DNA of 64,000 bases, taken from a virus. The notes below the pieces were generated by a model. The model saw nothing but the letters and a program-made list of their open reading frames with translations. It ran no database searches and was not told the origin of the DNA. Position numbers and translations under genes: made by a program. Location of the stretch: the IMG/VR virus record IMGVR_UViG_3300042563_002443. The stretch is one strand, 5' to 3'. Positions within the stretch are counted from its first letter, which is position 1. The number at the start of each line of letters is the position of its first letter. Shown here in pieces: positions 58 to 56,730 of this stretch.

Positions 58-78
58 TAATAACCCTAAAAAAAGAGA
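58..78 (+). repeat. 21-bp intergenic direct repeat, copy 1 (TAATAACCCTAAAAAAAGAGA)
   Basis: Identical to 300-320; both copies span a stop codon and lie just before ATGACAA starts. Confidence 0.85.
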
Positions 79-80
79 AC

Positions 81-10975: not shown

Positions 10976-11605
10976 TTAATTTTTAACAGGGGGAGCTGGT
11001 TTCACAGGAGTTGCTGCTTTAGGAACTATTAATGCTGTCTTAGCTGCAACTATTGGAACTAGATATACGTTTCGAAAATGATCCCAATATGGTATTTGTT
11101 TAGCTTTATTTTCAGGATCTGGTGCAATCATTTTTTGCCAATCTTTAATTCTACTTTGAAAATCACTTAATCCCATTGAAAAATTAGTATCTGCACTAGA
11201 ATTATATGCTTTACTAAGGACTGGTGCTGACTTGGCTAAAATTCCAACAACATCTGTGTATTTTAACGAATTTAAAAATTTCGGCGTATATCCTTGGTGT
11301 GCCATGGCCAACATGATACATTTCATTAAATTAAATCGTTCAGTGCTCCATTTTGCTCCAGCAGCTGCTCTGTTAGCTTCAGGCGCTCCATAAACCCATG
11401 GTGGCGTTGCACCGACAGTTTGCGGAAAATTTGTAACGTACGTGTCAAACGCGAATTGATCTTTAAAGTTTAATGCATATGTAATACCGTCTTGTCCTTT
11501 AAAGCCTTCTGTTAACAGTGACGATTCATTAATTTTTTTAACATCTGACTTGGATAAATTCTTTACGCCAAATCGAAGCATATTTTCAGCTAATGTATTT
11601 TTCAT
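10976..11605 (-). CDS. hypothetical protein; the only well-supported minus-strand gene
   Basis: Has its own minus-strand ATATTTAT box, AAGGA SD and terminator; LLTE site near the N-terminus. Confidence 0.8.
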   Translation of the reverse strand: MKNTLAENMLRFGVKNLSKSDVKKINESSLLTEGFKGQDGITYALNFKDQFAFDTYVTNFPQTVGATPPWVYGAPEANRAAAGAKWSTERFNLMKCIMLAMAHQGYTPKFLNSLKYTDVVGILAKSAPVLSKAYNSSADTNFSMGLSDFQSRIKDWQKMIAPDPENKAKQIPYWDHFRNVYLVPIVAAKTALIVPKAATPVKPAPPVKN

Positions 11606-18209: not shown

Positions 18210-20090
18210 ATGGAAACTAAAAAAGATATATCATATTTAGGAAAAGACTTTGGTCAGTTTAGGAAAGGGCTAATTGATTTTACTAAACAATATTTTCCAG
18301 ATACATATGTAGACTTCAATGAATCATCGCCAGGAATGGTATTCTTAGAATTAGCTGCGTATGTAGGCGATGTGTTATCATACTATGCAGATTCAAACTT
18401 AAAAGAGTCTATGTTAGAACAAGCATCGGAACGAGCTAATATATTTGATATTGCAAAATCATTGGGATATAATCCTAATAATGTTGTCCCGGCATATGTA
18501 ACATTGGATGTATTTCATATTATACCATCGATTGGAGCAGGAGCTGCAGTAGCACCGGATTTTAATTATGCATTATCAATTAAACCTGGTATGCGCGTTA
18601 AACAAAATAATGGTGCTGCAATATTTAGAACATTGGATAGCATAGATTTTGCATATTCATCGTCGACTAGTCCTACCGAAATAACCATATATGAAAGTAA
18701 TGCTACAACAAAATTACCAACATATTATTTGCTTAAAAAACAAGTGCGTGCAGTGTCAGGAGACGTTAAAACAGCAACATACAGTTTTACAACACCATTA
18801 GCATATGATAAAATAGTATTACCTGATACAAATATTTCGGAAATTATTTCAGTTGTTGAATCTGATGGAGATAATTGGTATCAAGTACCATACTTGGCTC
18901 AAGATACTATTTTTGAAGATGTTCCAAATTTGGCAGAAAACGACCCAGATCTGGCACAATATCGATCATCATCTCCTAGTTTATTAAAATTAAAGAAAAC
19001 TGCAAAACGTTATATAACACGTTTACGTAGCGATAACAAATTAGAATTACAATTTGGAGCAGGCATCTCAGATAATAATGATGAAGAAATAGTTCCAAAT
19101 CCAGATAATGTAGGAAATGGATTAGCAGGATTTCGTCGTAATGTTGATGTTGATATTGACCCATCAAATTTTTTATATACTAGAACATATGGACAAGCAC
19201 CATCTAATACTACATTAACAATAACATATACTATAGGAAATGGAATTGTAGATAATGTCCCTGCAAATGTATTAACACTAGTTAATTTTGTTGAATATAA
19301 TGATGATATTAATACATCAACCAGTGGCAATCTAGTTAATTTTGTTAAATCAACAATTGCTGTTAATAATAGTGGGCCTGCTTCTGGAGCTAAAACTTCT
19401 GATACTTTGCAAGACATTAAAAATAATGCGTTAGCTAATTTTGCAACTCAGAATCGTTTAGTAACAAGAGAAGATTATATAATTCGCGCATATTCAATGC
19501 CAGCAAAATTTGGTAGTGTTGCAAAAGCATATATTGTACCAGATGATCAAATAACACAAACAAATTATCAACAATCTAGAATTGCTAATCCATTAGCAAT
19601 GAACATGTATGTTTTAGGATTTAATGATTCAAAACAATTATTTGAATTAAATCAAGCAGTAAAAGAAAATTTAAAAACATATCTTAACTATTATCGTATT
19701 TTAACAGATGCTGTTAATATTAAAGATGCATTTATTATTAATTTAGGTATTGATTTCGAAATTTCGGTTTTGCCAAATTATAATAGCAATGAAGTTTTAT
19801 TGAAATGCATTAATGCATTAAAATCAATGTTTAATGTTGATCGATGGCAAATTAATCAACCAATCATAAAATCAGATATAACTACTACGTTAGCTAATAT
19901 AAAAGGAGTTCAGACAGTAGTCGGAGCAACAATTTCAAATCTATATGATATTACATTTGGATATTCTGGCAATGTTTATGATATAAATTCTGCTACTAAA
20001 AATGGAGTAATATATCCTTCATTAGATCCTAGTATATTTGAAGTAAAATTTCCAAATCGAGACATTAAAGGTCGCGTAGTAAATCAGTAA
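18210..20090 (+). CDS. baseplate wedge protein gp6-like
   Basis: DFNESSPG...LAAYVGDVLSYY, LQFGAG, QNRLVTREDY. Confidence 0.9.
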   Translation: METKKDISYLGKDFGQFRKGLIDFTKQYFPDTYVDFNESSPGMVFLELAAYVGDVLSYYADSNLKESMLEQASERANIFDIAKSLGYNPNNVVPAYVTLDVFHIIPSIGAGAAVAPDFNYALSIKPGMRVKQNNGAAIFRTLDSIDFAYSSSTSPTEITIYESNATTKLPTYYLLKKQVRAVSGDVKTATYSFTTPLAYDKIVLPDTNISEIISVVESDGDNWYQVPYLAQDTIFEDVPNLAENDPDLAQYRSSSPSLLKLKKTAKRYITRLRSDNKLELQFGAGISDNNDEEIVPNPDNVGNGLAGFRRNVDVDIDPSNFLYTRTYGQAPSNTTLTITYTIGNGIVDNVPANVLTLVNFVEYNDDINTSTSGNLVNFVKSTIAVNNSGPASGAKTSDTLQDIKNNALANFATQNRLVTREDYIIRAYSMPAKFGSVAKAYIVPDDQITQTNYQQSRIANPLAMNMYVLGFNDSKQLFELNQAVKENLKTYLNYYRILTDAVNIKDAFIINLGIDFEISVLPNYNSNEVLLKCINALKSMFNVDRWQINQPIIKSDITTTLANIKGVQTVVGATISNLYDITFGYSGNVYDINSATKNGVIYPSLDPSIFEVKFPNRDIKGRVVNQ

Positions 20091-20100
20091 AGGAATATAA

Positions 20101-21219
20101 ATGTTTAGAATATTTTATGCAGCAAAAGACGCAACGTTATATGAATCAATACCAGCATATAATACTGGTCTAGACGAAATTTTAGAAGTTGGTAAACGAT
20201 TGGGCACTGACGGTGCTACTTTGTTAAAGTCTAGAAGTGCTATTAAATTTGATATGACTGAAATTTCTGCATCATTATCTACATATGGAAAGTCAGTTAC
20301 TGATTGTAAATTTGTATTGCAATTATTTACATCTGATGCAAAAAATCTTCCTGCAGAATATTCGGTTCATGCAAAATTAGCTGGCCAGGATTGGACTAAT
20401 GGCACTGGATATCAATCTGCGTTAACAACAAATGGTGTAACATGGAACGGTCCTTATAGTGGCTCTTCTTGGATTTCATCAAGTCAAAACATAAAAATTG
20501 GAACTAGCACATTGTATGTATCAGGAAGTGGTACTGGTGGCTCTTGGTTGTTTCAATCTAGTTCGGTTGGATCTACTGCAGGACTAATATCATCTGAATC
20601 ATTTTCTTATCGTACCACTGATATTAATATGGATGTTACAAATGCATTAAAAGTATGGTTAAGCGGAAGTGGTGGTGCCTCAATAACCAATAATGGATTC
20701 TTAATTCAATTTTCTGATACTGATGAATTAAATGATACAGTAACTGGATTTGTTAGATATTTTAGTCGAGAAACACATACCATATATGTTCCTAAATTAA
20801 CAATGTATTTTGATAATAGTGCATTTGTTACTGGATCATTGACAGCATCTAATTTAGAATCATATATAGTTTATACTAAAATTAAACCGCAGTATAAAGA
20901 TACTGAGATTGCTAAAATTAGAATATATGCACGAGACAAATTTCCTCAAAAATCACCAACAAATTTATTTCCTATAGAAACAATTAAATATTTGCCGTCA
21001 ACTACTACGTATGCGGTATTTGATGCTCAAACAGATGAAGCTATAATTCCATATGATGATATTTATAATAAAGTAAGTTGTGATAGTACCAGTAATTATA
21101 TCTATATAGACATGAATGGGTTTATGCCAGAACGTTATTATCGGTTAGAGCTAAAAATCAAAGAAGGATTTACTGAACAGTATATCAACGACAAAATTAA
21201 TTTTAAAGTAGTTAGATAA
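20101..21219 (+). CDS. virion structural protein (DNRLRE-like N-terminal domain)
   Basis: KDATLYE...NTGLDEILEV...RSAIKFD...NNGFLI...FSRET...PKL pattern; within the baseplate cluster. Confidence 0.6.
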   Translation: MFRIFYAAKDATLYESIPAYNTGLDEILEVGKRLGTDGATLLKSRSAIKFDMTEISASLSTYGKSVTDCKFVLQLFTSDAKNLPAEYSVHAKLAGQDWTNGTGYQSALTTNGVTWNGPYSGSSWISSSQNIKIGTSTLYVSGSGTGGSWLFQSSSVGSTAGLISSESFSYRTTDINMDVTNALKVWLSGSGGASITNNGFLIQFSDTDELNDTVTGFVRYFSRETHTIYVPKLTMYFDNSAFVTGSLTASNLESYIVYTKIKPQYKDTEIAKIRIYARDKFPQKSPTNLFPIETIKYLPSTTTYAVFDAQTDEAIIPYDDIYNKVSCDSTSNYIYIDMNGFMPERYYRLELKIKEGFTEQYINDKINFKVVR

Positions 21220-32617: not shown

Positions 32618-32728
32618 CATGATAATTAATTTATTTAATTAATAGATTGATTCTTTTATTGAATCGATCGTTAGACCAGGAATGTAATGTATGTGTCTAA
32701 CTAATATTATTTATATTATTATATTTAA

Positions 32729-32757
32729 TTGGAAAAGAACTAATAATTCATTATATT
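32729..32757 (+). promoter_or_regulatory. sigma70-like promoter TTGGAA-N17-TATATT
   Basis: Immediately upstream of the primase ATG. Confidence 0.65.
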
Positions 32758-32764
32758 ATATATA

Positions 32765-33709
32765 ATGAAGAATCTTAAGTTATTACAGTTACTGGAATCA
32801 GTATTAGGTAAAGGTAAATCTACTTCCGGGAATAACATTGCATTTTTCTCTCCTTTTATTTCTCACTACAAGCCAAAATTAGAAATTGATATCAATACTA
32901 ATCATAACGGCGAAAATCCATGGCATTGTTGGATATCTGAAAAAAAAGGTCGAAGCATTGTTTCATTGTTTAAACAATTAAATTTATCAAAAGAAAAGTT
33001 TGAACAATTAGCCCGTATCATTGAAACTTCAAAGTATCGTAATCATGATACTACAACAGAAAAAAGTGTTGCAATACAATTGCCGGACGATTATCGACCA
33101 TTATGGATAAAAAAATTAACTCCTGATTATAGAAATGCAATTTATTATTTAGAATCTCGAGGAATTACTATTTTTGATATTATTAAATATCGAATTGGAT
33201 ATTGCGAGAATGGAGAATATTCCGGCAAAATTATTATTCCAAGTTATGATGGAAATGGTCAATTAAATTATTTTGTATCTAGAGCATTTTATAAGAATGA
33301 CAAACAAAAACATAAAAATCCTAAAATATCAAAAGATATTATTGGGTTCGAACTGTTTATAAATTGGGCAGAACCTATTATACTTTGCGAAGGTTCATTT
33401 GATGCAATTTCTATTAAAAGAAATGCAATTCCATTATTTGGAAAAATAATACAACCACAACTTCAAAAAAAAATTATTCAAGAGCGTGTACGAAACATTT
33501 ATATATGTTTAGATGCAGATGCATTAAAAAATGCACTTCAAATTGCTGAGCGATTTATGGGAGAAGGATTAAATGTATATTTTGTAGAATTAAAAAGTGA
33601 AGATGCATCAGAATTAGGATTTAAAAAAATTACAAATATATTAGCAGATATCGATGTTTTAACATTTGAACGATTAATGCAATTAAAAATGGGAATGATA
33701 TGGGCATAA
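32765..33709 (+). CDS. DNA primase (DnaG/TOPRIM)
   Basis: WHCW, YLESRGI, IIIP, ILCEGSFDA, CLDADA. Confidence 0.9.
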   Translation: MKNLKLLQLLESVLGKGKSTSGNNIAFFSPFISHYKPKLEIDINTNHNGENPWHCWISEKKGRSIVSLFKQLNLSKEKFEQLARIIETSKYRNHDTTTEKSVAIQLPDDYRPLWIKKLTPDYRNAIYYLESRGITIFDIIKYRIGYCENGEYSGKIIIPSYDGNGQLNYFVSRAFYKNDKQKHKNPKISKDIIGFELFINWAEPIILCEGSFDAISIKRNAIPLFGKIIQPQLQKKIIQERVRNIYICLDADALKNALQIAERFMGEGLNVYFVELKSEDASELGFKKITNILADIDVLTFERLMQLKMGMIWA

Positions 33710-50874: not shown

Positions 50875-51557
50875 TGAGATCATTTTTAAAAGAAATTGAA
50901 GACAAATTTTTAGATCTTGAAGAGTCATGTGATAAATGCGACACACCTAAGTCTCAATGTGCATGTGATGACGAGATTGATGAACAAAATGTTACTGGTG
51001 CAATTGCAGGATATAATATACCAGCAGCGTTTGCTAAGCCAGGAAAATGGAAACAAAAAAATGCACAGTATGAATCAAAAACACGAAATCAAGGCCAGTA
51101 CCAGGTTCCAGAGTTTGATGAAGAAGTGCAAGCCGATAAATTTCCATTTGCAATGGATGATGACATTTGGTTAAACAAAGATATGGAATATCCATCTAAA
51201 GATAAAACAAAGACCCCAGGTACGGCTCATAAAAAAGATTTAGATATGGCAAATCGAAAAACTAAACTTCAAGTTGAAGATGTATTAGAAAACAAGTACC
51301 AACAATTAATTGAAAGTTATCGTAATTTTTCTGTAGACGATCCAAAAATATCTCCGGAACGCAAAGTAAAAAATACAATTCAAGAAATTGCAAAAAAGCT
51401 TCAAGAAATTGAAACTATGGTGAATTACAATACTAGATTAAAAACAGAATCTGGAGTGACTTCATCAAACTACGGACCAGGAACACAAAAAGCATTAACA
51501 AAAATATCAGAGAGATTGATTAAAATTTCAGAACGAGTAAGATCACTAGGAGAATAA
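50874..51557 (+). CDS. head-module hypothetical protein (possible prohead core)
   Basis: Coupled ORF with several (L/I)xE sites. Confidence 0.7.
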   Translation: MRSFLKEIEDKFLDLEESCDKCDTPKSQCACDDEIDEQNVTGAIAGYNIPAAFAKPGKWKQKNAQYESKTRNQGQYQVPEFDEEVQADKFPFAMDDDIWLNKDMEYPSKDKTKTPGTAHKKDLDMANRKTKLQVEDVLENKYQQLIESYRNFSVDDPKISPERKVKNTIQEIAKKLQEIETMVNYNTRLKTESGVTSSNYGPGTQKALTKISERLIKISERVRSLGE

Positions 51558-51559
51558 CA

Positions 51560-52189
51560 ATGTCAAAACAACTAATATTAGAATATATACCATTTAAGCC
51601 ATTTGAGTCATTATCAGAATCTTCTGGTGCTGCATATGGTGTACCTGGGGGTGTTGTTGTACAAGGTGTTTTACAAAGAGCAGGCGCAAAAAATCAAAAT
51701 GGTAGAATATATCCTAGAACAATTTTAGAACGAGAATGCAACCGATATCAACAAGAATATATAGATCAACATAGGGCATTAGGTGAATTAGATCACCCAG
51801 AATCATCCGTAGTTAATTTAAACAATGTTTCACACAATGTTTTAAAGATATGGTGGAAAGGCGATGATTTATGCGGAGCAGTACAAATCTTAGAAACACC
51901 AAGTGGTAAAATTCTTAAAGAACTTTTTAAAGCTGGAATAACATTGGGTATTTCTAGTAGAGGTCTAGGCTCAGTTAAAGAACTGCGTAGTGAAGGCACC
52001 GTTGAAGTACAAGAAGACTTTGAATTAATATGTTGGGACTTCGTATCTAATCCATCAACCCAAGGCGCTTTTATGCGTCCTACGCACATGAACGAATCGG
52101 TAGGTAAACAATCTACCGCAAATAAATATAATAAAGTAAACAGTATCATTACATCGATTTTATGTGATGACGGTAAATGCAGGATATAA
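51560..52189 (+). CDS. prohead protease (gp21-like)
   Basis: NQNGRIYP, ALGELDHP, VSH, GISSRGLGS, DFVSNPS. Confidence 0.95.
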   Translation: MSKQLILEYIPFKPFESLSESSGAAYGVPGGVVVQGVLQRAGAKNQNGRIYPRTILERECNRYQQEYIDQHRALGELDHPESSVVNLNNVSHNVLKIWWKGDDLCGAVQILETPSGKILKELFKAGITLGISSRGLGSVKELRSEGTVEVQEDFELICWDFVSNPSTQGAFMRPTHMNESVGKQSTANKYNKVNSIITSILCDDGKCRI

Positions 52190-52568: not shown

Positions 52569-52569
52569 T

Positions 52570-52598
52570 TTGGATTTTTAAATAAAAAATATTATAAT
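52570..52598 (+). promoter_or_regulatory. sigma70-like promoter TTGGAT-N17-TATAAT
   Basis: Inside the head cluster, upstream of ORF 52610 and bS21. Confidence 0.7.
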
Positions 52599-52609
52599 AT
52601 ATAGGTAAA

Positions 52610-53599
52610 ATGATGAATCGAATCAAACAAATGTATAAAGACTTTTTTGGCTATCGACTTAATGAAGCTGCATATGTTCCATACAACATAATGGATTTTG
52701 CTAAAAATAAAGGACCTTATGCAGTAGCGCTTGTTAAGAAAGCAGCAACATGGGCAGAAAAGTCCGGCAAAAGAATCAGCGGCGGAACGGCTATTGGTAA
52801 AAATTATAGCACTATTATCTTAGATATGAAACATCAAGGAGCTGAAATTTATATTAATCTAGATAATGAAACTATTGAATTGTTTGGTGAAGAAGTTTAT
52901 GATGCAAAATCATTTGCTCAAGTATTTAAAACTATGTCTGATACTAACAATATTATATTTTCAATTAATGACGAAAAATTAGATGATATATTGCAAGCAA
53001 ATCATCGTAGAGAATTAGAATATAGAAAAGATGTAACGGGTGATGTATATTATATATTACCAATAAAAGAGTTTGATCGATTTATTGGTTATGCAGATTC
53101 TGCAGGATATGATGTAGATTATGAAAACTCAGAAAATTCAGTAATTTATGTTGCAGACGCTGAAATTAAATTACGTGAACAAAACACCGGAACAATTTCA
53201 ACTAAAGATCCAAAGCAAGCTGAAGAACTTGCAAAAAAAGGAATCAACGTTAGTTTGTCAGAAGATGAATTAGACGAAGCTCAGCTTATTAATCATATGA
53301 CTGATTATCGTGGAGGAGTTGAATATGTAGTACGTGATGTAGCAGAAGCACAATCAGTTTCACAAAATATTCAACAATGGGCTGAGAAAAAAGGATTTAC
53401 TGTTGTTAACAAGAAAATTTCAAAATCAGGTCGAGTTGGATATTTTTATTTTAGACTAGGCGAAAACCCATCACAAGAATCACAAAAGATACAAGGATAT
53501 ATTTCACAAATGCCAAGTATTAAACATTTTAGATTTCGCGTAAGATCACAAAATTCTAGACCAACACAACCAGCACAACCAACGCCAGATATGGTATAA
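52610..53599 (+). CDS. hypothetical multi-module protein
   Basis: 329 aa; segments separated by LNE/LRE/LDE sites. Confidence 0.7.
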   Translation: MMNRIKQMYKDFFGYRLNEAAYVPYNIMDFAKNKGPYAVALVKKAATWAEKSGKRISGGTAIGKNYSTIILDMKHQGAEIYINLDNETIELFGEEVYDAKSFAQVFKTMSDTNNIIFSINDEKLDDILQANHRRELEYRKDVTGDVYYILPIKEFDRFIGYADSAGYDVDYENSENSVIYVADAEIKLREQNTGTISTKDPKQAEELAKKGINVSLSEDELDEAQLINHMTDYRGGVEYVVRDVAEAQSVSQNIQQWAEKKGFTVVNKKISKSGRVGYFYFRLGENPSQESQKIQGYISQMPSIKHFRFRVRSQNSRPTQPAQPTPDMV

Positions 53600-53620
53600 A
53601 CAATTTATTAAACAAGTTAT

Positions 53621-53866
53621 ATGAGTAAAAAACAAAAACAACATCAAGCAATTGTCCCAGGCAATACATTAGCAGTAAAAGTTACCGGATCATCGCGAGA
53701 AGATTTAGCATATGCCCTTAAAGCATGGAAACGCAAAATAAAATCATCGGGAATTTTAGAAGAAGTAAAAGAACGAAAAGAATTTATTAAGCCTAGCGTC
53801 AAAAAAAGAAAACAATTACAAAATGCAAAATTTATGCAAATGGTAAGAGATTTACACGCAAATTAA
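53621..53866 (+). CDS. rpsU: phage-encoded 30S ribosomal protein bS21
   Basis: VKV...LAYALKAWKRKIKSSGILEEVKERKEFIKPSVKKR matches bS21; carries an N-terminal extension of about 15 aa. Confidence 0.9.
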   Translation: MSKKQKQHQAIVPGNTLAVKVTGSSREDLAYALKAWKRKIKSSGILEEVKERKEFIKPSVKKRKQLQNAKFMQMVRDLHAN

Positions 53867-53887
53867 AATTTAATTGATTTAAAATAT

Positions 53888-53922
53888 AAGCCCCTTCTTA
53901 AAAAGTTGGGGCTTTTTTACTG
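53888..53922 (+). terminator. intrinsic terminator with TTTTACTG tail
   Basis: AAGCCCC...GGGGCTTTTTTACTG after bS21. Confidence 0.8.
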
Positions 53923-53939
53923 ATTTTTTATTTTTGCTT

Positions 53940-53947
53940 ATATTTAT
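53940..53947 (+). promoter_or_regulatory. putative late promoter box ATATTTAT for scaffold/capsid operon
   Basis: Followed by a ~100-nt hairpin-containing leader and AAGGAG. Confidence 0.65.
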
Positions 53948-54053
53948 TTTAGAATACGCTATTACAACATATATAGCGTTTATAGACAATTAAAATATTC
54001 TATTAAGATTTCAAATAATCTTATTTCCAAAAACAAATTTAAGGAGAAAAACT

Positions 54054-55040
54054 ATGGCAAAATCAGATTTGCTAAAAGAAGCAATTGCCGACGCTCGTGC
54101 TGTTAAAGAAACTGCATTAGCAAACGCAAAAATTGCTTTACAAGAAGCATTCGCTCCCCGCTTAGAAAGAATGTTAGCTACAAAACTAACAAATGAAATT
54201 GAGGGTGAAGAAGAATTGCAAGAACCAAATTTGGATGATATGGGTGACGATGTCCCTGTAGAAGACGAAACAACAGACGGTGCTGTTGATTGGGTTGACA
54301 ATGATATTTCATTCTCAGTAGGTGGAAACACTTATGATGCTGAGATTGATAATTCAATGGAAGACGAACCAGTTGCAGAACCAGAAATGGGTGGTGAAGA
54401 AGAAGCACCAATGTCAAATGACGAAATGTCAGACGAGTACAATGAAAACTATGAGATGGATGAAGATCTAAATCTTGAAGCAATCATTCGCGAGTTAGAA
54501 GGCGATTTAGACGAACCAGAAATGGAAGAACCAGAAATGGAAGAGCCAATGATGGAAGGCGAGGAATATGCTGAAGAAGACGATTCGGATATGAACATTG
54601 ATGAAATCATTGAATCGATCCTACGTGAAGAAGAAGAAGATGTGCCTGCAGCAAAAGCAGACGATGAAGTTGAAGCAGTAAAAGAAGAATTGGAAGAAGC
54701 TTATAATACAGTTCGTCAATTGAAATCTATTATCAACGAAGTTAATCTTTTAAATGCAAAACTTCTTTACACAAACAAATTGTTTCGCAATTTTGAATTG
54801 TCAGAAAATCAAAAAATGAAAGTAATTGAAAATTTTGATAGAGCTGGTAATACAAGAGAAGTGAAATTAGTATTTAGTACGTTAGCTGAATCATTTAAAC
54901 GTCCAACAACAAAGAAACGTGTAGTTAAGGAATCATATGCATCTAAACCAGTTGCAACAACGGCTCCTAAATCTACAAATATTATTAATGAAGGATTTGA
55001 CCAAGCAGAACGATGGAAAAAATTAGCAGGATTGCTATAA
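54054..55040 (+). CDS. prohead core scaffolding protein (gp22-like)
   Basis: Very acidic coiled-coil protein directly upstream of the major capsid gene. Confidence 0.8.
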   Translation: MAKSDLLKEAIADARAVKETALANAKIALQEAFAPRLERMLATKLTNEIEGEEELQEPNLDDMGDDVPVEDETTDGAVDWVDNDISFSVGGNTYDAEIDNSMEDEPVAEPEMGGEEEAPMSNDEMSDEYNENYEMDEDLNLEAIIRELEGDLDEPEMEEPEMEEPMMEGEEYAEEDDSDMNIDEIIESILREEEEDVPAAKADDEVEAVKEELEEAYNTVRQLKSIINEVNLLNAKLLYTNKLFRNFELSENQKMKVIENFDRAGNTREVKLVFSTLAESFKRPTTKKRVVKESYASKPVATTAPKSTNIINEGFDQAERWKKLAGLL

Positions 55041-55068
55041 ACATTTTAAAAAAAAAGGAAAACAAAAA

Positions 55069-56730
55069 ATGAGTATTTCAAATTTATTACAAACTAACGA
55101 TTTCGTTCAAAGAAACAATGCTAAATTAGCAGTTTCTAAATGGGAGAAGACAGGTTTGTTAGAAGGTCTTAGAACCGAAACAGAAAAAGCCGGTATGGCT
55201 CAATTGCTTGAGAACCAAGCAAGACAACTAGTAAAAGAAGCATCATCTACAGGAACAACTGCAGGATCAGAAGAATGGGCAGGAGTTGCTCTTCCATTGG
55301 TTCGTCGTATTTTTGCTGAATTTGCTGCAAAAGAATTCGTATCAGTTCAACCAATGAACTTGCCATCAGGTCTAGTATTTTACTTAGACTTTAAATATGG
55401 TACAGCTCAACCAGGATTTGATAATGACAACAACAGCAGATCAGGTGATCCATTTGGTTCTCCTAACGCTGACGATTCATTGTTTGGTGTAACAAGCACA
55501 ACGTTGGATCCATCAGGTGGTTTATATGGCGCAGGCCGATTTGGTTATTCAATCAATGAAACTTCAAGTGTAGTATTAGCAACAACGGCATCTGCCGCAA
55601 CTGCTGGTTCAGGATCTGTTAACTTTGATGCTAGCTATACAGGAACATTGTCAGGTTACAGCGTTGTTTATGTAGCAGCAACCGCTTTATCAAGCTCTGA
55701 TTTAACTGCAGTAAGATCATTTGTATTAACATCTGGTTCAAATATTACAGCAGCAATGAACGTTCCTGCATTTACAAAATACAATGCATCATCAGGTAAT
55801 GTTGAATTCTTTATTTCAAAATCAGCAGGGATGAATGGTACAACAGGATATACTGTATCGTATAGCAAACAACCGCTTGATTATGCTAGAGGTGATTTTG
55901 AAGACAACAAAGGATCAGCAGGCGCAGGAACATCAGGCTTGAATGCTGATATTGACATTCCAGAAATCAACTTGGAAATGCAATCAGATCCAATCGTTGC
56001 CAAGACTCGTAAGTTGAAAGCAGTTTGGACTCCAGAATTTGCTCAAGATTTAAATGCTTACCATTCAATTGATGCTGAAGCTGAATTAACTTCAATGTTG
56101 TCTGAGTATGTATCCATGGAAATCGATTTAGAGATCTTAGATATGTTAATCTCTGCAGCACCAACAACTGAATATTGGTCAGCATTGAACAACAACTTCT
56201 TCAACTCAGCAACTAACACATTCGTTCAATCGGGCGCAGGTGCAGCAACATCTTTAGGTGATGGATATTACAACACACAAGGTGGTTGGTTTCAAACATT
56301 AGGTACAAAACTTCAAAAAGTATCTAATAAGATTCACCAAAAAACTTTAAGAGGTGGTGCGAACTTCTTAGTAACTAGTCCAGCAGTAGCAACAATCCTT
56401 GAGTCTATCCCAGGATTTGCAGCTGAAACAGATGGCACTAAGATGGAATTTGCAGCAGGTGTACAAAAAATTGGTGCAATTAATAACCGATACACTGTAT
56501 ACAAAAACCCATACATGACAGAAAACATAATCTTAATGGGATTCAGAGGAGCACAGTTCTTAGAAACAGGAGCAGTATTTAGTCCTTATATTCCATTAAT
56601 TATGACTCCGTTAGTATACGATCCAGTTAACTTCACTCCACGTAAAGGTGTTATGACACGTTACGCGAAGAAAGTAGTTCGTCCAGAATTCTACGGAAAA
56701 GTATATGTTCATGGTTTAAATGCAATTTAA
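55069..56730 (+). CDS. major capsid protein (gp23-like)
   Basis: LLENQ, PLVRR, VQPMNLPSGLVF, AKTRKLKAVWTPEFAQDL, PYIPL, GVMTRYA. Confidence 0.97.
   Translation: MSISNLLQTNDFVQRNNAKLAVSKWEKTGLLEGLRTETEKAGMAQLLENQARQLVKEASSTGTTAGSEEWAGVALPLVRRIFAEFAAKEFVSVQPMNLPSGLVFYLDFKYGTAQPGFDNDNNSRSGDPFGSPNADDSLFGVTSTTLDPSGGLYGAGRFGYSINETSSVVLATTASAATAGSGSVNFDASYTGTLSGYSVVYVAATALSSSDLTAVRSFVLTSGSNITAAMNVPAFTKYNASSGNVEFFISKSAGMNGTTGYTVSYSKQPLDYARGDFEDNKGSAGAGTSGLNADIDIPEINLEMQSDPIVAKTRKLKAVWTPEFAQDLNAYHSIDAEAELTSMLSEYVSMEIDLEILDMLISAAPTTEYWSALNNNFFNSATNTFVQSGAGAATSLGDGYYNTQGGWFQTLGTKLQKVSNKIHQKTLRGGANFLVTSPAVATILESIPGFAAETDGTKMEFAAGVQKIGAINNRYTVYKNPYMTENIILMGFRGAQFLETGAVFSPYIPLIMTPLVYDPVNFTPRKGVMTRYAKKVVRPEFYGKVYVHGLNAI

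Follow-up and report, generated by a model that had tools for sequence, protein, structure and literature searches.

The ribosomal protein most often encoded by viruses is bS21, and to our knowledge the function of a phage copy has never been shown. One such copy lies among the head genes of a 64,000-nucleotide stretch of viral DNA (IMG/VR record IMGVR_UViG_3300042563_002443, here called the window), in which many gene starts are preceded by a Shine-Dalgarno (SD)-like motif, typically AAAGGA. The relation between this protein and this motif is the subject considered here. In Bacteroidota, the anti-SD sequence of 16S rRNA is held by a pocket made of bS21, bS18 and bS6 (Jha 2021, PMC7797042; McNutt 2023, PMC9976891), and Tyr54 and Ile55 are the two residues of Flavobacterium johnsoniae bS21 that touch the 16S 3' tail (PMC7797042). 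A Y54A change, a C-terminal truncation or depletion of bS21 in this organism raises SD-led translation three- to fivefold, with little effect on mRNAs that have no SD (PMC9976891). A phage-driven exchange of bS21 has been speculated on (McNutt 2023, PMC9976891), and Chen 2022 (PMC9723584) proposed that phage bS21 substitutes into host ribosomes and favours phage transcripts late in infection, with no analysis of ribosome-binding motifs. Huge phages encode an rpS21 with an N-terminal extension rich in basic residues, and SD usage in these phages was tied to rpS1, not to rpS21 (Al-Shayeb 2020, PMC7162821). A literature search that did not cover every journal found no publication linking phage bS21 to SD-like leaders.

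What does the present locus add? The AAAGGA motif is a trait of the whole clade of phages that carry bS21 and is missing from the bS21-less sister clade; both of these findings are new. Genome-wide tests were run on relatives rather than on the window's own genome. Five near-complete relatives carry bS21, namely G002 (complete, 169 kb and syntenic with the window throughout), G003, G007, G008 and a phage recorded as Microcystis phage Mel-JY01; two, both complete, are without it, namely Flavobacterium phage immuto (vB_FspM_immuto, NC_055915) and G010. The nearest record of all, G001, is a 20-kb fragment without bS21. The fraction of genes with the strict motif is 0.21-0.30 in the five bS21-carrying genomes vs 0.03-0.04 in the two others, where these 3-4% of genes are below the genomes' own control level of 12-14%. 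In a blind sample of 72 usable loci, drawn with the immuto capsid protein regardless of bS21, the fraction is 0.33-0.62 in the seven loci with bS21 and averages 0.09 in the 65 without it (Mann-Whitney p=1e-5). Leaders of orthologous capsid and scaffold genes are rich in A in either clade, and the difference lies only in the G's: where the capsid gene otherwise has AAAGGA, immuto and G010 have A-rich leaders free of G. The early and late promoter boxes are of identical classes in the two clades. Outside these phages the motif is sparse. Bacteroidota chromosomal loci around rpsU, the gene for cellular bS21, have it at 8.4% of 1019 genes (control, 4.7%), with Flavobacteriales rpsU itself carrying a known extended SD, AAAGGAGGT, and huge phages with a host-type bS21 that has no extension (LR745206, LR756502) have it at 0.02-0.04 of their genes.

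Within the window, AGGA, GGAG or GAGG occurs at positions -17 to -4 of 18 of the 71 genes (25%), vs 7% and 4% at two control positions. When the upstream 30 nucleotides (nt) of each gene were shuffled 1000 times, the mean count was 3.8 and the maximum 10; positional enrichment is alike in four other genomes. The earlier note on this DNA had listed 16 plus-strand starts with the motif, and AGGA or GGAG is indeed present at every one of them, with its first letter between -6 and -14; on the minus strand, the ATG of the gene that ends at 11605 is preceded by AAAAGGAATACGA. The bare leaders that it named are equally borne out for the portal and terminase genes, phoH (57130), bS21 itself (53621) and the non-late starts 7365, 9835, 11715, 13152 and 32765. 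Before the capsid, scaffold and protease genes the motif is conserved across about 60-70 relatives, and in some 60 of them the capsid-leader AAAGGA persists in an otherwise variable A-rich spacer. The leader of bS21, described before as A/T-rich, never has the motif in 80 relatives. A side observation concerns L270 (LR756501, a 735-kb phage; 19970-20201), where a host-type bS21 gene has a strong AAAGGAGG leader like that of the autoregulated Flavobacteriales rpsU; extended phage-type bS21 genes never have such an SD leader of their own.

The motif has two marks of an SD sequence: it is complementary to the 16S tail and stands at a short, constant spacing from the start codon, and it is enriched over background. 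Pooled over six bS21-carrying genomes, AAGGA is found 134 times near starts vs 7 times in a control window. GG peaks at -11 to -8, and the gap between motif and ATG peaks at 5-7 nt. There are 214 matches of at least 5 nt to the complement of the 16S tail, with AAAGGA dominant; the predicted pairing of AAAGGA is with U1537-U1542, in a tail taken from F. johnsoniae (PMC7797042 numbering) that may not be that of the actual host.

Is the motif a mark of late genes, as the earlier note proposed? In the window the split is strong, with the motif at 15 of 35 genes of the virion module vs 2 of 33 other genes (Fisher p=5.6e-4). In all five relatives the motif is more frequent at genes that have a late box no more than 100 nt away (pooled, 74/185 vs 175/806; Mantel-Haenszel odds ratio 2.5, p=1e-7), and of the genes directly behind host-type early boxes 2 of 31 have it, vs 60 of 159 late-box genes (p=3e-4). 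The early box, TTG-N17-23-TAT[AC]TTTA, is shared with immuto and G010, and we take it to resemble the Bacteroidota -33/-7 promoter type. A clean genome-wide partition into late genes with the motif and other genes without it did not emerge. The enrichment is graded, with the motif lacking at the earliest genes, frequent at late genes and those for abundant proteins, and lacking again at portal and terminase.

The window's bS21 has its best matches in the Protein Data Bank (PDB) with chains of the F. johnsoniae (7JIL_z) and Porphyromonas gingivalis (9I5V_9) ribosomes, and its top 25 matches there are all bS21 chains; 190 relatives, 79-81 amino acids long, are found in IMG/VR. Alignment with host bS21 bears out an N-terminal extension of 13 residues. 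About 18 residues (median 18) stand before the conserved core column in the phage proteins vs 5 in cellular ones; in the window they include MSKKQKQHQAIVPG, rich in basic residues, and the basic extension MxKKQKxHQxIVPG is conserved across the family, in all phage-type sequences. Phe71 and Met72 align with Tyr54 and Ile55 of F. johnsoniae bS21 (7JIL), so that Phe does stand at the anti-SD-contacting Tyr position, as the earlier note had it. This position is Tyr in 78 and Phe in one of 79 cellular Bacteroidota proteins, whereas the 59 unique phage sequences have Phe (33), Tyr (25) or Lys (1) there. Relative to the Bacteroidota Tyr54 signature, which stacks on A1534, Phe71 keeps the aromatic ring and loses the hydroxyl. 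Past this position the mean net charge of the phage proteins is +1.0, vs -0.7 in Bacteroidota cells, and in this they agree with the Bacteroidota type, whose C-terminal part is far less basic than that of other phyla (Jha 2021). The window protein ends in QMVRDLHAN, without an Arg/Lys run; basic tails occur in a Firmicutes-type phage copy (L272) and in Mel-JY01. Whether position 36 is Trp or Phe was also considered as a determinant and is unrelated to motif use. The bS21 of Mel-JY01 (L092/W02, PP395634; 22183-22410) is without the MxKKQK extension motif and without the aromatic, and has the basic tail. This phage, recorded as infecting Microcystis, belongs to the same capsid clade and has the late box in common; given its bS21, host or mechanism may be different on the deepest branch. 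A distant bS21 used as query (P0136) gave no matches in IMG/VR. No phage bS6 or bS18 was found elsewhere, with no PF01250 match in the five genomes, and no bS21 was found elsewhere in five bS21-less fragments, which are only 17-32% complete.

How might protein and motif be connected? Phage bS21 would be made before or along with the late proteins, would take the place of host bS21 on 30S subunits and would hold the 16S 3' tail less tightly than host bS21 does; on ribosomes remodelled in this way, AAAGGA-led phage mRNAs would gain an advantage in initiation. Since alteration or depletion of bS21 raises SD-led translation in F. johnsoniae, a variant that binds the platform and holds the tail more weakly would suffice. 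The effect would be quantitative, a boost for abundant proteins (capsid, scaffold, protease, SSB, GroEL) and not an on/off late switch, and the N-terminal extension, not Phe71, would be the more likely determinant. Judged from sequence comparisons, the proposal that phage bS21 makes remodelled ribosomes favour AAAGGA-led phage mRNAs is plausible, partly supported and unproven, and we put its probability at roughly 0.4. More tentatively, the N-extended bS21 may convert SD-blind Bacteroidota ribosomes to SD-reading ones, opening a private channel for AAAGGA-led phage mRNAs that neither host mRNAs nor the phage's own earliest mRNAs would use. If true, this re-enabling of a dormant host mode of rRNA-mRNA recognition by a virus would be without precedent. 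The locus thus joins the question of what phage bS21 does with that of anti-SD hiding in Bacteroidota, in a prediction that can be falsified. The pattern is that SD-like leaders go with an extended bS21, are missing in the bS21-less sister phages, which use the same kind of host, and are not found on the phage genes that have to be translated first. Should the prediction hold, nature would have provided a clear example of a virus-made specialised ribosome.

Several observations weigh against this proposal. On the capsid tree, the 36 bS21 rows all fall to the same side of one branch (support 98); with a single transition, the association of bS21 and motif amounts to one event and could ride on a host shift. 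Two IMG/VR contigs inside the bS21 clade, L300 and L301 (3300026097_000227 and 3300007609_000072), keep the extended bS21 and its neighbouring gene ORF329 and have the motif at 0.07-0.08 of their genes; the sequence of their capsid leader is AAAAAGAAAAC, and only the scaffold gene retains TTTAAGGAG. They are a natural counter-example, in which nearly all motifs have been lost. Conversely, bS21-less subclades A and B stand at 13-14%, mostly owing to the scaffold TTTAAGGAG. The presence of the scaffold motif in bS21-less phages indicates that this element predates bS21 or is independent of it. The same leader, or TTTAAGGAAAAA, is kept in bS21-less loci L241, L250-L252, L242, L261 and L264. The aromatic that stacks on A1534, Phe or Tyr, is retained in all but one phage sequence, and Chen 2022 (PMC9723584) took a retained aromatic as a sign of kept anti-SD blocking. 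Phe71 as the switch residue had to be given up: motif use is equal in phages with Phe (0.38) and with Tyr (0.35), so this residue is not the key. The contrast between virion-homolog and other genes is not significant in the five relatives, and the motif is also found at about 20% of the genes that have no late box, SSB-like, RecA-like and GroEL genes among them. Finally, genes close to a late box have only 10-20 nt between the box and the ATG, and part of the motif may therefore fall outside the transcript.

Some of these points are accommodated by an ordinary phage bS21 as conceived by Chen 2022, which would replace host bS21, leave the anti-SD hidden, and help the phage through supply, competition or attraction of mRNA by its N-terminus. 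AAAGGA might then be an unrelated habit of the clade, read by the minority of ribosomes without bS21 or acting as an unstructured purine-rich enhancer. The retained aromatic, the L300/L301 lineage with its bS21 and almost no motifs, and the scaffold motif of bS21-less phages all agree with such a role, as does the fact that F. johnsoniae ribosomes without bS21 do read SD sequences (PMC9976891). It would leave unexplained, however, the roughly sixfold motif excess of the bS21 clade over a sister clade with the same promoters, and the avoidance of the motif by early-box genes; we consider it a doubtful possibility, though one to be taken seriously.

Could the clades simply differ in host? The bS21 clade might infect bacteria that read SD sequences, either non-Bacteroidota or atypical Bacteroidota, with the motif an ordinary SD and bS21 unrelated to it. 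The single transition on the capsid tree would fit, and so would Mel-JY01 with its recorded Microcystis host and its basic-tailed bS21 lacking the aromatic. Yet the bS21 of the window's subclade is of Bacteroidota type, the early promoter box is the same as in immuto, the dominant AAAGGA fits the UCCUUU part of the tail and not the classical GGAGG, and the sampled Bacteroidota loci reach only 8%. As immuto infects Flavobacterium and the promoter boxes are common to both clades, a host difference at phylum level is unlikely, and the explanation as a whole appears improbable. Still less probable, to the point of being very unlikely, is that the motif does not bind ribosomes at all and is part of a late promoter or transcription-start region, or an RNA-processing or protein-binding site. 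GG does lie 5-8 nt past the late box at many genes, and enrichment is strongest beside late boxes; but most motif genes lie inside operons, away from any box (e.g. 55069, 51560, 59061, 17753 and 20101), the motif of Mel-JY01 is 25-30 nt downstream of the box, and its position is fixed relative to the ATG with the gap of 5-7 nt noted above.

The gene arrangement around bS21 was correctly described before: the gene sits in the head cluster, in a unit closed by a terminator ahead of the scaffold-capsid operon (Table 1). The gene lies within the terminase-portal-protease-capsid region and, here and in 80 relatives, on the same strand as the head genes. The layout TTTGGAT...TTATATTA...AGGTA is kept in about 70 relatives, before the open reading frame (ORF) upstream of bS21, and the TTATATTA box class is also found before the SSB and QueC genes of immuto. 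A generic sigma-70 scan did not flag the box at 52570. Of the non-late promoter claimed at this site, the conserved box thus stands, and its function as a promoter is predicted, the non-late assignment coming by association with the immuto SSB and QueC genes. The terminator is borne out by folding and conservation: the hairpin at 53888-53914 (-14 kcal/mol, z=-2.8) is followed by a T-run, and the element is kept, with compensatory stem changes, in 41 of 48 distinct relatives. A generic terminator scan missed it because the loop is too long for the rule of the scan. The late box that follows belongs to the top intergenic 8-mer, ATATTTAT/TATTTATA; it is found at -107 to -119 of the scaffold gene in 38 of 48 relatives and is common to immuto and Mel-JY01. 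The bS21 unit, as read from these predicted signals, is insulated by the terminator from the late scaffold-capsid operon, with read-through from upstream late units possible.

ORF329, the other gene of the unit, has a conserved leader (consensus MNKLKKLYxDFFGLTE; MMNRIKQMYKDFFGYRLNE in the window), a variable middle with a 180-amino-acid insert in this phage, a conserved 95-amino-acid ferredoxin-like C-terminal domain and a Pro-rich tail. It has no Pfam or PHROG match. The AlphaFold model is confident over residues 235-311 (pLDDT 90-97), and the C-terminal domain holds an RNP1-like GYFYF strand. Fold matches include S6 (2j5a_A, Z=10.6) and a chain of the F. johnsoniae 70S ribosome (7jil_k, Z=10.0), headed by 7ane_b, a Leishmania mitoribosome chain whose molecule was unnamed in the output (Z=11.4, root-mean-square deviation 1.8). 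All three are level, to within 1-1.5 Z, with matches to ACT, NikR and designed ferredoxin folds. No Ribosomal_S6 match was obtained among 41 members at E<=10, and a PDB profile search gave nothing relevant. ORF329 and bS21 occur together in 133 loci; no bS21-less locus has ORF329, and neither do the deeper bS21 branches. The idea of a phage bS6 was therefore rejected: there is no sequence support, and the motif is still in use on deeper bS21 branches where the gene does not occur.

The window as a whole is part of a T4-like myophage with 33% GC and nearly all genes on the plus strand; PHROGs left most of them unnamed. Through the capsid protein, the nearest named phages are immuto (56% identity) and Mel-JY01. 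The host is probably a member of the Bacteroidota, as the earlier note had supposed; this is judged from the affinity of bS21 and from the early-promoter box shared with a Flavobacterium phage. Of the 80 nearest cellular bS21 loci in a pattern scan, 77 are from Bacteroidota, a count that is supportive and not decisive, as the pattern was partly built from Bacteroidota-like sequences.

Table 1. Positions of genes and predicted signals in the window
Feature	Position	Strand	Remarks
Endonucleases	11715, 32104		embedded non-structural genes
Baseplate wedge proteins	17753, 18210		
Primase	32765		embedded non-structural gene
SbcCD-like protein	33700		embedded non-structural gene
Large terminase	starts 46440		
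Portal	starts 48140		
SD-like AGGAG	51548..51552	+	before prohead protease gene
Prohead protease	51560..52189	+	Pfam PF03420
Promoter-like region before bS21 unit	52569..52609	+	TTTGGAT, 17 nt, TATAAT-like box (TTATATTA class), AGGTAAA, ATG
ORF329	52610..53599	+	directly upstream of bS21, co-oriented
Phage-type ribosomal protein bS21	53621..53866	+	81 amino acids; PF01165, 42.8 bits vs cut-off 27, E=4e-11
Predicted intrinsic terminator closing bS21 unit	53888..53920	+	interrupted GC stem, then TTTTTTACTG
Late box ATATTTAT	53940..53947	+	~110 nt before scaffold gene
SD-like AAGGAG	54041..54046	+	7 nt before scaffold ATG; TTTAAGGAG or TTTAGGGG conserved in relatives
Acidic scaffold-like protein	54054..55040	+	328 amino acids; between protease and capsid genes; acidic composition; no Pfam family match
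SD-like AAAGGA	55054..55059	+	9 nt before capsid ATG
Gp23-type major capsid protein	55069..56730	+	Pfam PF07068, E=1e-73
PhoH	starts 57130		

Other leaders and intergenic sequences have features of their own. Small early genes (window 60-80 and 303-324; L081-L089, reverse complement of 58-70 kb, in G002) have a host-type promoter and then AAAAGAGAGA just before the ATG. AAAAGAGAGA is present in 64-69% of the early-box genes of G002 and G008 vs 0-4% in bS21-less phages; the last six bases of the 16S tail could pair with AGAGAG, and some Bacteroidales rpsU leaders read AGAAAGAGAGA (L122, L130). A TTGGAA-N17-TATATT box ends 7 nt before the ATG of the primase gene (window 32700-32767), a spacing which suggests that the primase mRNA is leaderless or nearly so; genes 11715 and 52610 have a similarly tight distance between box and ATG. 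The 308-nt intergenic region at 781-1088 has runs of G and C (GGGGGG, CCCCCC) amid 33% GC and several hairpins followed by T-runs, and may be a structured RNA or a region of stacked terminators.

How does the locus compare with described systems? Immuto, the nearest cultured relative, is similar in its late box, early box, unidirectional genome of about 160 kb and the capsid identity given above. It differs in that no bS21 is detected even at E<=1 and SD-like motifs are depleted before its starts, 3% vs 14-17% in the control. With the freshwater Bacteroidetes myoviruses of Chen 2022, the window shares a bS21 in the head-gene region, the Bacteroidota affinity of this protein and an aromatic at the Tyr54 position. 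In those phages, however, bS21 is on the strand opposite to the structural genes, whereas here it and those genes share a strand, bS21 being part of a two-gene unit that has a promoter-like box and a terminator of its own; Phe at the Tyr54 position, seen once by Chen 2022, is the commonest residue here (33 of the 59 unique sequences). Among huge-phage records that match cellular Bacteroidota bS21, the three examined are all without the extension, and two of these are without an SD signal. The F. johnsoniae system involves the same protein and the same pocket, and there too the alteration or removal of bS21 switches ribosomes to SD-led mRNAs. Its SD-led target, however, is rpsU itself, whereas in the phage the bS21 gene has no SD and the motifs are on many other genes; and the phage motif is AAAGGA, as against the extended SD of Flavobacteriales rpsU.

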